The position numbers were made by a program, and so were the translations under genes. DNA of 64,000 nt from Escherichia phage vB_EcoM_phAPEC6, in the sequence record MK817115.1; one strand, 5' to 3'. The notes under the pieces were generated by a model, which was not told the origin of the DNA, ran no database searches, and saw nothing but the letters and a program-made list of their open reading frames with translations. Shown one piece after another: positions 1 through 14,685 of the stretch. Within the stretch, counting starts at the first letter, position 1; each line of letters opens with the position of its first letter.

Positions 1-2
1 TT

Positions 3-1145
3 ATGTTACCTTTTGCAAGAATGGTTAAGTACGGGAATATTGCACCTGCACAAATCGGTAGATATAAAATATACAGTTCATCTTCTTCACTATTTTTATT
101 GGATACCCAAAAACACAATTTGTACAGTACATCGAACATTAATTATACTAGTGGTACAGGTAATGTTGAGCCTAAATTTGTGTTAAGTGCAACTAATGTT
201 AAAAGATTATTACTATCTGATAATAGTTGTGCAATGCAAATATATGAAGATATGAATGGGCGTGCAGCGATGTGTGGCACAAGAACTGCATATAGTGGGG
301 TTGCAAATGATAATGTACTGGTATGGACGGATTGCACTACATGGTTCACAAATGTAGGGTTGAATGTATCAGATATTCAGTACATGTCTGGTTTTTATAA
401 TCTGAAACTAAACATAGTTATGAATAATGGTGATTTGTGGTGTAGTGGGAAAAACAACACTACTACTATGTCATCATTTGGTAATAGCACAAATATCGAT
501 TCATTCAATCAGTTTACCAAAATAACAACAATATCAAATGTTATTAAAGCCACCGGGAATATATACTTATGTGCAGATAATACTTTATGGGGATGTGGTT
601 TTAACTCTTACTATCAGTTAGGGACAGGTAATCAAACATCCAGTATTAATTTGATTATGATGGCTTCTAATGTTATCGACTGTAATGTTGGTCTTCAAAA
701 TACTTATTACTTGACTAATAATAAAGAACTTTATGGATGTGGTACACAATTTGGTACAACTTACGGGAATGAATTTGGAACAGGAAGGCAGGGAACATCA
801 ATACAATATAAGACTCCTACTATAATTTTCACAAATGCAGATGGTCTGGCTGTTTGTGTCGGTAATATGTCTACTCATGTTATTCAATATGATAAAGTTT
901 TTAGTTCTGGTAATAATGCCCTTGCACAGTTGGGTGTAGGCAACCGTGACAATGTGTACACATATACACAATCATTTGATAATTTCAAAATGGATTCTTC
1001 TATAGTACGTGCAAACGTTGGAACATTGATAATGACAGCGGACAATAAGTTATATTACAGTGGGAGAAATGATGTTGTTATGGGTGGAACAAGCACACAA
1101 TACACGACGGTTTTCAGTGAAGTTAATATGTCATTTATACAATGA
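3..1145 (+). CDS. Array member 1: RCC1-like beta-propeller repeat protein with conserved N-terminal leader MLPFARMVKYGN
   Basis: ATG at 3 followed by the shared leader; repeated GxNxxGQLGxG-type blades (LWGCGFNSYYQLGTGNQT, VFSSGNNALAQLGVGNRD); upstream cassette lies outside the window. Confidence 0.85.
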   Translation: MLPFARMVKYGNIAPAQIGRYKIYSSSSSLFLLDTQKHNLYSTSNINYTSGTGNVEPKFVLSATNVKRLLLSDNSCAMQIYEDMNGRAAMCGTRTAYSGVANDNVLVWTDCTTWFTNVGLNVSDIQYMSGFYNLKLNIVMNNGDLWCSGKNNTTTMSSFGNSTNIDSFNQFTKITTISNVIKATGNIYLCADNTLWGCGFNSYYQLGTGNQTSSINLIMMASNVIDCNVGLQNTYYLTNNKELYGCGTQFGTTYGNEFGTGRQGTSIQYKTPTIIFTNADGLAVCVGNMSTHVIQYDKVFSSGNNALAQLGVGNRDNVYTYTQSFDNFKMDSSIVRANVGTLIMTADNKLYYSGRNDVVMGGTSTQYTTVFSEVNMSFIQ

Positions 1146-1217
1146 ATTAATGCCAGTACTTGATACTGGCTTTTCTTTTTTGTATTAAATATAGTATAAT
1201 GAATAAAGGAGGGAATT
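1146..1217 (+). promoter_or_regulatory. Array cassette: terminator hairpin + promoter-like box + RBS
   Basis: Hairpin GCCAGTA-CTTGA-TACTGGC followed by a T-run; invariant GTATTAAATATAGTATAATGAATAA; AAGGAGGG 7-8 nt before ATG. Confidence 0.7.
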
Positions 1218-2360
1218 ATGTTACCTTTTGCAAGAATGGTTAAGTACGGAAATGAAGCACCAGAACCAAAACCTCTATTTAAAAATAGATTACAAGCAAA
1301 TTATAATACTCGTTTTTATTTGCATGTTAATGGTGACTTGTACTGGTATGGTTCATCTTCATTTGGACAAGGTGGTAATGGTTCATTACAATCATCCACC
1401 GTATGGACCCGTGTGAATAATAATATTGAACGTTACTGGGGTGGTGTTCTTGGTTCCATTGCCATTAAGAATGATGGAACTATTTGGTTCACAGGTGCTA
1501 GTATAGTAATGCCACAAATCGGAACAAATACAAATGGGGTTTGGATTGATGTAACCCAGTACTTCACTGATTTTGGTGTCAGTGCTGATGATATTGATGG
1601 TATTGCTGTTGGACAGAATTTGCGTGTATTTTTGAAAAATGGAAAATGGTTCTACTGTGGTGCTGGCGAGGGTGGTGTATTTGGTAACGCATCAACAGCT
1701 AATGTCACATCGTTCAGATACAGCACTATAGAAAATGTTAAAAGTTATGGCTGTTCTTTGCTCAGTACTGGGTTAGTTCTTGATGATGGTTCCTATTGGT
1801 ATGCAGGAAATACTGTTGCTCCTGGTAGTACAACAACATCAAATATATTAAGTTTTACAAAAGACAATACGATCACCAATGCTATACAAGCTGTAAATAC
1901 ATACCGTACTTCATATATATTTCTTAATGATGGTTCAGTGAAGGTTGCTTCACCAAATGCATATGGTCAAGCTGGTGTAGGTAGAGTATCAGCAGTACCA
2001 ATGAGTACATTAATTCCCAATTTATCATTCCAAGGTGAAATAGAGTTGGTGGGTGGTTTATCCAACAACGAAGGGAATGGATGTGTTGTTAAAAATAATA
2101 ATAAGTTATATACTTGTGGTCGAAATACCTATGGTGCATGTGGTGTTAATCAAACATCCGAAAATATACTAACTTTCACCGAAATGGTTCTTGATGCATT
2201 AGAAGGAAGACGAATTTCAGGCTTCGTAATTGATAATTTCTATTCAATGATAATTGATGAAAATAACAATTTGTATATGAGTGGTTTGGCTGAACTTGGA
2301 AATGTTCCAGCCGTGAGAGTTCCAACCAGAGTCCCCGATTCCCTTCTACCGTGGAAATAA
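1218..2360 (+). CDS. Array member 2: RCC1-like beta-propeller repeat protein with MLPFARMVKYGN leader
   Basis: Shared leader; blade motifs LYWYGSSSFGQGGNG, LYTCGRNTYGACGVN; own cassette upstream. Confidence 0.85.
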   Translation: MLPFARMVKYGNEAPEPKPLFKNRLQANYNTRFYLHVNGDLYWYGSSSFGQGGNGSLQSSTVWTRVNNNIERYWGGVLGSIAIKNDGTIWFTGASIVMPQIGTNTNGVWIDVTQYFTDFGVSADDIDGIAVGQNLRVFLKNGKWFYCGAGEGGVFGNASTANVTSFRYSTIENVKSYGCSLLSTGLVLDDGSYWYAGNTVAPGSTTTSNILSFTKDNTITNAIQAVNTYRTSYIFLNDGSVKVASPNAYGQAGVGRVSAVPMSTLIPNLSFQGEIELVGGLSNNEGNGCVVKNNNKLYTCGRNTYGACGVNQTSENILTFTEMVLDALEGRRISGFVIDNFYSMIIDENNNLYMSGLAELGNVPAVRVPTRVPDSLLPWK

Positions 2361-2433
2361 TGTAATATGCCAGTACTTGATGCTGGCTTTTCTTTTTTGT
2401 ATTAAATATAGTATAATGAATAAGGAGGGATTT
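2361..2433 (+). promoter_or_regulatory. Array cassette: terminator hairpin + promoter-like box + RBS
   Basis: Same hairpin, TATTAAATATAGTATAAT box and AAGGAGGG as other cassettes. Confidence 0.7.
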
Positions 2434-12939: not shown

Positions 12940-13019
12940 TACTATAAAACTATGCCAGTACTCGATACTGGCTTTCTTATTTTGGATTAAATATAGTATA
13001 ATGAATAAAGGAGGGAATT
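12940..13019 (+). promoter_or_regulatory. Array cassette: terminator hairpin + promoter-like box + RBS
   Basis: GCCAGTACTCGATACTGGC hairpin, GATTAAATATAGTATAAT, AAAGGAGGG. Confidence 0.7.
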
Positions 13020-14189
13020 ATGTTACCTTTTGGAAGAATGTTAAAGTACGGAAATATTAAACCAACTCTTCCTGAAATAAAGAAATTGGATGGTAGTCAA
13101 TTACATGTCGGATTACTTTATAGTACAGGGAATATGTACATGCGTGGTTCTGGTTCGAACTATAAATTAGGTACAGGGGATGCTAGTGATGTATTAGGTG
13201 GTTGGGTACATGTACCCTATGAAGTTGATGATTTTTGGGCGTGTGTATCCGGTACATTAATAAAGACTGTTGATAATAAATTATATTGTGCAGGTCTATA
13301 CATGGGTGGATATTTTGGGGCTAGTGGTTCATATGTTAACTGGACTGAAGTAACTTCATTATTTGTAGGTATTGACGTGTCGCAAATAAAGAATATAGAA
13401 TTTACGTCAGCGGGGACTTCCGGTAGTACACTAATATTGATGTTAGATGGTCGTTTATATGGGTTCGGTATGAACAGTAGATCTGAGTTAGGTGTTAATA
13501 ACAAAGTTGTATCTCCCATTCTTATAGATACTGAGGTAAGTGCAATAGGAGCACATAAGTTAGGCGGTTCATCGTTCCATTATATAAAAGGCGGTAAGTA
13601 CTACAGATGTGGAACATCGGTTGGTAGTAATATTGGAAGTTCTTCTTTAACTACTTTTACGGTATTGAGTATTCCTGATAACGTTATATCTATGCAAATA
13701 TTATATGACAACGTACAGTTATTATGTTTAGGAAGTTCTGGATATAGTATCTATATGGCTGGTTCTAATGATTATGGTGGAAGAGGTGTTGGTGGTTCTA
13801 CTGTTTACACTACATTCAGGAAAATAGATCTTACAGGATTTGGTGTTGTTCCCAGTGAAATACTATTTGAAAATGCTGGAAATGGTTATGTTAATATATC
13901 AACTGATAGTACTGGGGTATATACATGTGGTGGTGGGGCTGGTGTTAATGGTTTAGGTAGACCAACTGATGTGATACCAAGTTCACAGTTGGGTTCGGTT
14001 CAGTTCAGTACTGGAGTAGAACCATCAAATATAAGTCGTGTGTATTCACAGAGTTCGAGTTCTGTTATATATTGTATAGTTAATAATGAATTGTACTGGG
14101 CTGGTAGTAATTCATATTTTACTGATCAAACCACAAATACTGGTACACAATTTTCATTTATTAAGATGAAGGATATGCCTTCTGCTTAG
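13020..14189 (+). CDS. Array member 12: RCC1-like beta-propeller repeat protein with MLPFGRMLKYGN leader
   Basis: Shared leader; paralog of member 9; blades LYCAGLYMGGYFGASG, LYGFGMNSRSELGVNN. Confidence 0.85.
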   Translation: MLPFGRMLKYGNIKPTLPEIKKLDGSQLHVGLLYSTGNMYMRGSGSNYKLGTGDASDVLGGWVHVPYEVDDFWACVSGTLIKTVDNKLYCAGLYMGGYFGASGSYVNWTEVTSLFVGIDVSQIKNIEFTSAGTSGSTLILMLDGRLYGFGMNSRSELGVNNKVVSPILIDTEVSAIGAHKLGGSSFHYIKGGKYYRCGTSVGSNIGSSSLTTFTVLSIPDNVISMQILYDNVQLLCLGSSGYSIYMAGSNDYGGRGVGGSTVYTTFRKIDLTGFGVVPSEILFENAGNGYVNISTDSTGVYTCGGGAGVNGLGRPTDVIPSSQLGSVQFSTGVEPSNISRVYSQSSSSVIYCIVNNELYWAGSNSYFTDQTTNTGTQFSFIKMKDMPSA

Positions 14190-14261
14190 ATTTTATGCCA
14201 GTGCCTTGTACTGGCATTTTTTTGTCCTAAATATAATAACGATTTACATTTGGAGGATACA
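14190..14261 (+). promoter_or_regulatory. Diverged array cassette
   Basis: GCCAGTGCCTTGTACTGGC hairpin, CCTAAATATAATAACG, GGAGGA RBS: recognisable but degenerate copy. Confidence 0.5.
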
Positions 14262-14685
14262 ATGCTACCCTTTCGAAGAATTATCACATCATCAAAACAG
14301 AACATACAACCTTCTGTAACAAAAATAGCTTCATCTGATACAACAGTTTTTGCCCTTATGTCAGATGGTACGTTGTACAGTAGAGAATCTCAAGAGTTTG
14401 GGTTATTCATATTTTTCTAATCATATTATAACTTCATTGGGTGTTTACGCAACTGGTAATAACACAGGCGATAACGCAGGTCAATTGGGTATAGGTACAC
14501 AAACAGATGTGTCGGCCTATACCAAATGTGTACTACCAATAGAGATGAATATGAATAACGTATATGTTACAGCAACTTTATACAGAACTTACTTAACCGA
14601 TGGTATACAAATTTACAGTACTGGACAATATATTACAGACGGTGGAGTTGCCAGTACTGTATTTGTTAAAGATTCACCATTTTAG
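14262..14685 (+). pseudogene. Decayed terminal array member (diverged leader MLPFRRIITSS, internal frame break, truncated)
   Basis: Leader frame stops near 14420; a second frame (ORF 14350..14685) carries one remaining blade (GNNTGDNAGQLGIG) and a family-like C-terminus. Confidence 0.55.

Follow-up and report, generated by a model that had tools for sequence, protein, structure and literature searches.

A conserved N-terminal peptide heads a hypervariable array of RCC1-like genes in Escherichia phage vB_EcoM_phAPEC6 and is a candidate tag for virion incorporation

Results

Organization of the Array

This report concerns a tandem gene array at the beginning of a 64,000-nt stretch of the genome of Escherichia phage vB_EcoM_phAPEC6 (sequence record MK817115.1), the whole of which is referred to below as the window. 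Between positions 3 and 14189, we found 12 plus-strand genes (g01 to g12) that start with the peptide MLPF[AG]RM.[KN]YGN, here called the leader, and that are followed by a decayed 13th gene. A six-frame scan placed all 12 leader copies on the plus strand and at the starts of open reading frames (ORFs; positions 3, 1218, 2434, 3614, 4823, 6063, 7325, 8132, 9356, 10640, 11830, and 13020), and returned no further copy in the rest of the 64 kb. An original prediction, made from the sequence alone, had described a tandem array of 12 genes and one decayed remnant, and this description holds. Residues M1, L2, P3, F4, R6, M7, Y10, G11, and N12 are invariant in 12/12 members. The core of the leader pattern given in the prediction likewise stands, but the pattern was slightly too narrow: position 8 may also be L, position 13 may also be E, and P15 is absent from the gene at 7325.

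In most members, the leader is joined to an RCC1-like propeller. These are g01 (3-1145; leader MLPFARMVKYGN; 380 amino acids [aa], 41.77 kDa), g02 (1218-2360; 380 aa, 41.23 kDa), g03 (2434-3543; 369 aa), g04 (3614-4810; 398 aa), g05 (4823-5992; 389 aa, 41.39 kDa), g06 (6063-7253; leader MLPFARMMNYGN; 396 aa), g08 (8132-9283; 383 aa, 40.25 kDa), g09 (9356-10531; 391 aa, 41.36 kDa), g11 (11830-12939; 369 aa, 39.30 kDa), and g12 (13020-14189; leader MLPFGRMLKYGN; 389 aa, 41.39 kDa). The product of g07 (7325-8059; 244 aa; PHROG 4474) carries the same leader on a beta-sandwich/glycine-rich body that is not RCC1. A frameshift truncates the RCC1-like body of g10 (10640-11449; 269 aa, 30.06 kDa), and the last RCC1 blades continue in another frame at 11406-11816 on the plus strand. 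The decayed 13th member (14262-14685, plus strand) has the degenerate leader MLPFRRIITS, stops early, after 52 codons, and has its C-terminal blades in a different frame; in phage SP27, the C-terminal piece is annotated as a fragment of a "putative DNA condensation protein."

The 269-aa form of g10 and its frameshift are common to SP27 and 121Q, and a diverged relative of g10 (P0023, 264 aa) stops at nearly the same point. Programmed frameshifting was considered and rejected, as the shift site lacks a canonical slippery heptamer and the virion protein is listed with the truncated mass; for these reasons, we treat g10 as carrying an inherited frameshift.

Nine of the units are preceded by a common cassette, in which a GC-rich hairpin (GCCAGTAC...GTACTGGC) with a T-run is followed by a box (TAAATATAGTATAATG) and then by AGGAGG, which lies 6-8 nt before the ATG. 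Terminator-like hairpins occur on the plus strand after g01 (1152-1170), g02 (2369-2387), g05 (5997-6019), g06 (7261-7279), g07 (8065-8087), g08 (9290-9309), g09 (10572-10596), g11 (12954-12972), and g12 (14195-14217). A hairpin of the same family after g03 (3547-3571) is assigned to the plus strand from its sequence, whereas the terminator scan placed it on the opposite strand. Terminator-like sites number 19, vs. 6.5 ± 2.2 in shuffled sequences. The promoter-like box has nine exact copies where 0.29 would be expected; they lie upstream of g02 (1186-1201), g03 (2403-2418), g04 (3583-3598), g06 (6032-6047), g07 (7294-7309), g08 (8100-8115), g09 (9324-9339), g10 (10608-10623), and g12 (12988-13003), all on the plus strand. 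The genes g05 (4823) and g11 (11830) have neither terminator nor box before them, and only a ribosome-binding site follows the upstream neighbor. Most array units would on this evidence be separate transcription units, each with its terminator, promoter-like box, and ribosome-binding site. A further plus-strand hairpin of the array-terminator family (ATCCAGTAC...GTACTGGAT with a T-run) is located at 15341-15364, between convergent genes just past the array, and the GTAC-containing palindrome may be a terminator type used genome-wide.

The box was also examined as a promoter. A sigma-70 promoter scan gave no enrichment (85 vs. 79 ± 10), and the box was rejected as a canonical host promoter since it has no -35 element. 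The prediction had likened it to a phage late promoter. In support of this, 121Q encodes a gp55-like late sigma factor, the motif TATAAATA that precedes the 121Q capsid, scaffold, and hub genes is resembled by the TAAATA core of the array box, and the box shares 13 nt (TAAATATAGTATA) with the upstream region of the 121Q tail-fiber gene 607. However, 27/100 shuffles also produce a match at the tolerance used, so that late timing is unproven and the resemblance is only suggestive; judged by these motifs, late expression of the array is plausible. The PA5oct transcriptome paper yielded no usable late-promoter motif.

Folds of the Encoded Proteins

Membership in the RCC1-like group was judged by the Pfam families RCC1 (PF00415), RCC1_2 (PF13540), and WD40_RLD (PF25390) at curated thresholds. 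RCC1 or RCC1_2 scored above the cut-off in g01-g06, g08, g09, and g11, and the continuation of g10 matched RCC1 with 26.6 bits against a cut-off of 21.7. WD40_RLD was found in g10 (E 5e-13) and in g12 (E 2e-16), the latter falling just under the cut-off for RCC1. Eleven RCC1-like members belong to PHROG 4219. Their bodies share on average only 27.5% pairwise identity (range 22.6-35.4%), in keeping with the low identity that had been expected between members. That all bodies are of the RCC1 type is true of 11 of the 12 by Pfam and PHROG 4219, with g10 frameshifted; g07 is glycine-rich instead.

One RCC1-like member, g09, was modeled with AlphaFold2. The model (predicted template-modeling score, pTM, 0.84) is all-beta and forms a seven-bladed propeller, and Foldseek matched it to UVR8, RPGR, RCC1, and HERC domains (E 1e-20 to 1e-14; template-modeling [TM] scores 0.6-0.76, best 0.73-0.76). 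Profile search and structure prediction therefore bear out the RCC1 propeller that had been proposed, the former for 11 members and the latter for g09. For g07, we obtained no Pfam match and no RCC1 signal, and the Gly_rich_2 threshold was not reached; among its phmmer relatives down to E 1e-4, many carry Gly_rich_2 (PF21722). The AlphaFold2 model of g07 has a predicted local distance difference test score (pLDDT) of 93, and its best fold matches in the PDB by Foldseek are a cyanophage Pam3 fiber, the Bxb1 tail tip, and the glycine-rich domain of ALK. NCBIfam contained no match for g07, g09, P0157, or P0158. Sequence searches of the PDB matched the propellers to eukaryotic RCC1-type proteins only, and g07, P0158, and GAP31_106 to nothing; with no phage virion protein among the matches, there is no solved virion structure that shows a bound leader.

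The leader itself is disordered in both models, with pLDDT below 50 over residues 1-12 of g09 and disorder over residues 1-10 of g07. Because these first 10-12 residues are low-confidence tails in both, the leader is, as modeled, an appendage outside either fold. Two other roles were rejected: a closing strand of the propeller, since the leader is disordered in the two models and is present on non-propeller folds, and a secretion signal, since the sequence has no hydrophobic core. The full-length RCC1 bodies have isoelectric points (pI) of 5.6-7.6 and net charges of -3 to +1, whereas truncated g10 has a pI of 9.2. Being near neutral, the RCC1 bodies are not typical DNA condensers.

Virion Association

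The calculated masses of g01, g02, g05, g08, g09, g10, g11, and g12 equal those of phAPEC6 gp549, gp551, gp003, gp005, gp006, gp007, gp009, and gp010, respectively, with agreement to 0.01 kDa and in the same gene order. By these masses, the window is that of phAPEC6 or of a phage that does not differ from it in the eight genes. These eight phAPEC6 proteins were detected by mass spectrometry in purified virions, among 62 virion proteins, although with the low coverage of 1-5 peptides (PMC7247149). The presence of the truncated 269-aa g10 among them speaks against a need for an intact propeller in incorporation. Proteins with the same N-terminus in phage CBB behave alike: CBB_144, CBB_536, CBB_537, CBB_548, CBB_549, CBB_551, CBB_552, and CBB_553, i.e., 8/10 of those that carry it, are structural by mass spectrometry. 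Moreover, six CBB structural proteins absent from phage GAP32 were singled out by the CBB authors as whisker candidates, and 5/6 of these carry the leader.

The array has been noticed before, contrary to the original prediction, which recognized neither array nor leader from any described system; only the leader seems undescribed. In about 36 genomes, the genes are annotated as "regulator of chromosome condensation" or "DNA condensation protein," and the PHROGs category is nucleotide metabolism. The phAPEC6 paper counted eleven RCC1-like proteins and suggested a possible role in ordering the packaged DNA (PMC7247149).

The Leader in Other Phages

We ran a profile built on residues 1-41 against 1.84 billion cluster representatives and obtained 180 matches at E ≤ 0.001, of which 150 were listed. 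When the listed matches were pooled with earlier ones, at least 123 distinct clusters began with M[LI]PF[AVGPS]R[MIVL]xxYGN. Among the matches listed, most leader-bearing proteins are RCC1-like and of 360-400 aa, and others are Kelch proteins (P0157) or members of a ~222-aa family, one of which is a GAP32 protein annotated as a "virion structural protein." A word-indexed protein search with the same profile recovered six short fragments only. At the DNA level, we screened 2.9 million viral contigs with a degenerate back-translated pattern, and matches were confined to contigs of Rak2-like jumbo phages, namely 121Q, GAP32, CBB, Serratia BF, and five uncultivated phages; 8/9 of these are 348-378 kb long, the other is a 109-kb fragment, and most hold several copies. 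An exact DNA match in an unrelated 59-kb contig (L004) lies inside an antisense ORF and was rejected as a chance match. Using tblastn with g05, we found relatives in 55 phage records, those listed being jumbo phages of 310-386 kb and three Vequintavirinae; RaK2 and K64-1 were not among the listed g05 matches, and the DNA scan did not find the leader there.

The leader heads at least five unrelated types of body: RCC1, Kelch, Laminin-G lectin, glycine-rich, and others. In the syntenic region of CBB (genus Mimasvirus), nine genes start with MLPF..Y[GA]N, and their bodies are Kelch, Laminin_G_3, or unassigned. A tenth CBB gene, CBB_144 (L026, 9001-9765), has a glycine-rich body and is located between nrdD and nrdG of the anaerobic ribonucleotide reductase. 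Since its product is nevertheless structural, leader-bearing genes need not occupy any particular genomic site for their products to become part of the particle. No conserved cassette was found upstream of the leader-bearing genes of CBB. The leader string was not found in the literature searched, and the phAPEC6 and CBB papers mention no shared N-terminus. A leader spread over unrelated virion proteins of a jumbo-phage clade, with the Vequintavirinae counterpart described below, would thus appear to be new.

Turnover of the Array

Megablast of positions 1-15000 matched only Escherichia and Salmonella jumbo phages of ~350 kb that are of the 121Q/PBECO4/SP27 type; SP27 is assigned in its record to the genus Asteriusvirus. 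Across the whole 15-40 kb flank (100% coverage), identity to slurp01 is 99.1%, and most other members reach 97-99%, while slurp01 covers only 27% of the array. For the first 6 kb of the window, no record attains 80% coverage. Relative to SP27, g07-g12 are 99-100% and g03 is 98.6% identical, but g06 reaches only 85%, g04 75%, g02 65%, and g01 52%, and the best matches of g01-g04 occur in reverse order. No ortholog of g05 was found in SP27, 121Q, or slurp01, and g02 is 100% identical to a member of the 121Q array. Comparison of array content across related phages, which had been suggested as a check, thus reveals a hypervariable spot between phages that are otherwise nearly identical (slurp01, SP27). 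We infer that the repeated cassette and leader serve as recombination sites for this turnover.

Related bodies also occur under other N-termini. Three RCC1-like genes lie in tandem in UPEC06, a phage of the Vequintavirinae (L027, 2297-5402); all start with MLEM[LM]NL[GS], and g04 is 36% identical over its full length to the first of their products (E 9e-71), vs. 24-32% to its own array neighbors. In GAP31, another member of the Vequintavirinae, Laminin-G-like proteins (L024, 6995-8812 and 12930-13583) start with MEEMLLTGG, MQEMLLGGL, and MFEAMLTAG; one of these tagged proteins, GAP31_108, is annotated as a virion structural protein. Many homologues of g07 on other contigs, three of them of ~150 kb, start with M[LI]E[LM][LM]. 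By its sequence, the Vequintavirinae N-terminus looks like a parallel system to the leader of the window. Homologous bodies that bear different, lineage-specific N-termini would be expected if the N-terminus is an address label matched to an acceptor of each lineage. The Vequintavirinae motif (MLEMLNLG / M.EMLL.GG) can also be aligned loosely with residues 6-12 of the jumbo-phage leader.

Conservation of Peptide and of DNA

Codon conservation was measured as pairwise codon identity, as likelihood under the codon usage of the bodies was uninformative on the leader. In the window, leader codon identity is 0.90 vs. 0.47 expected from body codon usage, and the frozen codons include the non-preferred AAG, TAC, and GGG/GGA. 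These frozen synonymous sites, together with the identical upstream cassette, show that DNA-level homogenization of the array leaders in Asteriusvirus is real; it is superimposed on selection of the peptide. In the other genomes (CBB and uncultivated phages), codon identity is 0.58-0.66 vs. 0.47 expected, and the upstream DNA is unrelated; there, Ser in MIPFARISKYGN is written AGT, AGC, TCA, and TCC, and Pro is written CCT, CCA, and CCG. The same leader residues are kept despite varied codons and unrelated upstream DNA, indicating that the peptide itself is under selection. Leader identity is 0.81 within genomes vs. 0.63 between them, a difference reached by 0/2000 permutations, and leader variants track the genome and not the type of body; in one uncultivated genome, MIPFARISKYGN is found on bodies of 206-385 aa from several families. 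Likeness within genomes fits co-adaptation of the leaders to one acceptor per phage, with a possible contribution from gene conversion.

Discussion

We propose that M[LI]PFxR[MIVL]xxYGN, after which comes a short linker containing Pro, is a peptide tag, specific to the lineage, that would direct otherwise unrelated small binding proteins into the virions of Rak2-like jumbo phages by docking them onto one shared acceptor protein. In Asteriusvirus, the tagged set would comprise 11 RCC1-like beta-propellers and one glycine-rich protein that resembles a fiber tip. The bodies would act as interchangeable heads that turn over rapidly, with the conserved cassette and leader as the sites of recombination, and that are also exchanged with other phage lineages and re-tagged there. 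Such heads may be displayed outside the particle, either on the hair-like fibers of capsid and tail sheath or on baseplate fibers, where they would serve as auxiliary adhesins for host-surface ligands. As a whole, i.e., a lineage-specific virion-incorporation tag on exchangeable, externally displayed heads, we consider this explanation somewhat better than an even bet, with a probability of about 0.55. Its parts differ in strength. It is quite probable that the tag, rather than the body, causes incorporation, whereas the chances of external display with an adhesin function are evenly balanced. The original prediction had regarded the shared N-terminus as a targeting or anchoring signal on diversifying cargo, and this idea is well but indirectly supported by the eight virion masses, the siblings in CBB and GAP32, the disorder of the leader, the conservation of the peptide, and the hypervariability of the bodies.

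Conserved N-terminal peptides on exchangeable virion proteins have precedents. In the SP6/K1-5/K1E (7- or 11-residue peptides), KP32, Menlow, and PhiK64-1/RaK2 groups, receptor-binding proteins that can replace one another are attached through such peptides to an adaptor (Latka et al., 2019, PMC6872550). That scheme resembles the array in that conserved N-termini of 7-29 residues, each peptide specific to its group, are found on divergent virion proteins, the bodies are exchanged horizontally, and several tagged proteins are present per virion (PMC6872550); in addition, its PhiK64-1/RaK2 group is related to the phage of the window. It differs in that its bodies are trimeric tailspikes or depolymerases encoded in the tail-fiber module, and in that the acceptor, a T4gp10-like domain or an adaptor, has been identified or modeled. 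The array, in contrast, is encoded elsewhere and has an unrelated motif, and its bodies are propellers of monomer size, with lectin folds and a glycine-rich head among the tagged proteins. A group-specific conserved N-terminal peptide is therefore present here, but tailspike or depolymerase bodies are not, and only g07 is fiber-tip-like. A second parallel may be offered by the glycine-rich receptor-binding tips Pam3 gp24 and S16 gp38 (PMC9608196), as g07 also combines a beta-sandwich with a glycine-rich domain. Pam3 gp24 docks to the baseplate through an N-terminal alpha-helical trimerization domain, and its glycine-rich domain is the proposed receptor binder (PMC9608196); in g07, by contrast, only the 12-residue tag occupies the position of the docking domain. 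The published description of the phAPEC6 array covers the same locus, with eleven RCC1-like genes and the eight equal masses, and regards the products as possible DNA-organizing inner-body proteins (Wagemans et al., 2020, PMC7247149). The accessible part of that paper does not mention the non-RCC1 member or the link to Kelch and Laminin-G proteins of CBB and GAP32.

Where the tagged proteins are located is the less certain part of our proposal. Virions of 121Q and phAPEC6 bear long hairs on both capsid and sheath, have a fibrous protein at the center of each hexon, and contain an inner body, and the genes for these structures are unassigned; CBB virions likewise carry unexplained hairs. An external site is favored by the likeness of g07 to fiber tips, the lectin-type siblings, the near-neutral RCC1 bodies, the existence of hairs, and the lack of a conserved Glu in the leader, and we regard external docking as about twice as probable as internal targeting.

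Several points weigh against a tag for externally displayed heads. The link between tag and incorporation is correlative. The low mass-spectrometric coverage in phAPEC6 implies a low copy number, and contamination may account for part of the signal; furthermore, g03 (the mass of which matches none of the phAPEC6 virion proteins), g04, g06, g07, and two Kelch proteins of CBB were not detected in virions by mass spectrometry. Likeness of leaders within a genome could result from gene conversion instead of co-evolution with an acceptor. Monomeric propellers of 40 kDa are atypical of receptor-binding proteins, and hairs ~119 nm long cannot be built from them alone. The comparison of g07 with the Pam3 fiber (7ypx/7yfw) has a Foldseek probability of 0.96-0.98, yet the TM score is only 0.27-0.30. 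Finally, the inner body of 121Q and phAPEC6 makes an internal location possible.

The last point leads to the strongest of the alternatives, which we consider unlikely but worth serious attention. The leader would be a capsid-targeting sequence comparable to that of T4, by which the proteins bind scaffold or core, are packed in the head (the inner body), and are injected with the DNA, so as to neutralize host defense or other host proteins. In T4, the internal proteins IPI-III and Alt share a 10-residue N-terminal targeting sequence on unrelated, polymorphic bodies, and the ip loci of T-even phages are hyperplastic. The formal parallel with this sequence and its polymorphic loci is close, as a tag of ~10-12 residues at the extreme N-terminus heads unrelated, quickly exchanged bodies in both cases, and the divergent coding sequence adjoins conserved DNA that comprises promoter, ribosome-binding site, and leader. 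The phage also has a T4-like head module with gp20-, gp21-, gp22-, and gp23-like genes, and an inner body exists. Tagged genes lie outside the structural gene modules and away from the tail modules; RCC1 and Kelch propellers are classical protein-protein interaction domains that would be unusual as receptor binders; and hypervariability fits an arms race with defense systems. The proteins are virion-associated under either reading, as mass spectrometry gives association alone and not location. On the other hand, the window bodies are binding folds of 25-43 kDa and not small internal proteins, and the tag has no likeness to the T4 targeting sequence. A further objection concerns cleavage. At position 9, 51 of 123 leaders have K, 27 have E, and 45 have another residue, and E never occurs there in the window (K in 11/12, N in 1/12), so that no conserved L/I-x-E site is found. 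The 121Q capsid protein, however, does carry such a site (MLTE/S at residue 43), which fits its reported processing from 42.2 to 37 kDa; judged by this sequence, the T4-like protease of the phage appears to follow the L/I-x-E rule. Sibling bodies have lectin or fiber-tip folds, the solved relatives of which sit on tails, and the same architecture recurs in Vequintavirinae, for which we know of no inner body. T4-like capsid targeting with cleavage, which the original prediction had offered as an example, is accordingly not favored, as the leader lacks the conserved Glu.

Far less probable is that the conserved 5' end is a nucleic-acid feature, i.e., a ~110-nt repeat of terminator, box, ribosome-binding site, and 12 codons that is maintained through gene conversion or favored as a cassette for translation initiation or recombination, with a functionless peptide. 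The codon identity of 0.90 in the window is what such a repeat would produce, the upstream cassette is near-identical in nine units, and array members appear reshuffled between phages at the repeats. Nevertheless, the leader persists in g05 and g11, which lack the cassette; the peptide is retained in CBB and the uncultivated relatives although codons vary and the DNA upstream is unrelated; it is also retained in CBB_144, a gene set between nrdD and nrdG; and P3, F4, Y10, G11, and N12 hold across about 120 clusters. The codon data thus largely refute this explanation.

Equally improbable are RCC1-type "DNA condensation" proteins that organize the packaged genome, with the N-terminus as part of a DNA- or nucleoid-binding function. 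In favor of this reading, the RCC1 repeat signature and fold are genuine, the proteins are present in the virion, and ordering of packaged DNA was proposed by the phAPEC6 authors (PMC7247149). However, the name was carried over from eukaryotic RCC1, the pI and charge of the full-length bodies (given above) are close to neutral, Kelch, Laminin-G, and glycine-rich adhesin-like proteins bear the same tag, and the members differ radically between phages that are ~99% identical elsewhere, which would be unexpected for a core packaging component.

Returning to the proposed tag on exchangeable heads, the Vequintavirinae proteins raise a broader idea that we put forward tentatively and would rate at somewhat under even odds. 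Large myoviruses may load horizontally traded small binding domains onto or into their virions by means of lineage-specific N-terminal address peptides, M[LI]PFxR[MI]xxYGN in Rak2-like phages and the MLEMLNLG type in Vequintavirinae, with the hairs of capsid or tail as a possible acceptor. The domains so traded would be RCC1 and Kelch propellers, Laminin-G lectins, and glycine-rich tips, and the whole would amount to plug-and-display as it occurs in nature. When g04 is aligned with its UPEC06 homologue, the two tags may share a core, [RE]-M-[IL]-x-[YL]-G.

If the proposal is true, a misleading "DNA condensation protein" label would be replaced by a testable function at the most variable locus of jumbo coliphages that are candidates for therapy, and a handle would be gained on the unidentified hair-like appendages of 121Q, phAPEC6, and CBB. 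If the 12-residue peptide suffices for incorporation, it could become a tool for displaying foreign proteins on jumbo phages or packaging them. The parallel tag of Vequintavirinae suggests that modular virion decoration may be an overlooked general principle. If the heads are adhesins, host range or niche should be predictable from the content of the array, whereas injected effectors would make it a catalog of anti-host binders.

Other Features of the Window

From 15743-17809 onward to ~33.9 kb, small minus-strand ORFs of ~100-125 aa are arranged head-to-tail; they are similar in size, several are hydrophobic, and their CBB counterparts are annotated as membrane proteins. A sigma-70 family protein with Pfam regions 2, 3, and 4 is encoded at 40704-41669 (minus strand), within a long run of small minus-strand genes. 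A lone plus-strand gene of 384 aa at 46466-47620, located among minus-strand genes, has no Pfam match and no leader. Seven tRNA genes are present on the minus strand at 52950-57192, with the specificities Thr, Asn, Met, Ser (act), Arg (tct), Ser (tga), and Gly (tcc), and three of them are unusually long, at 90-92 nt.

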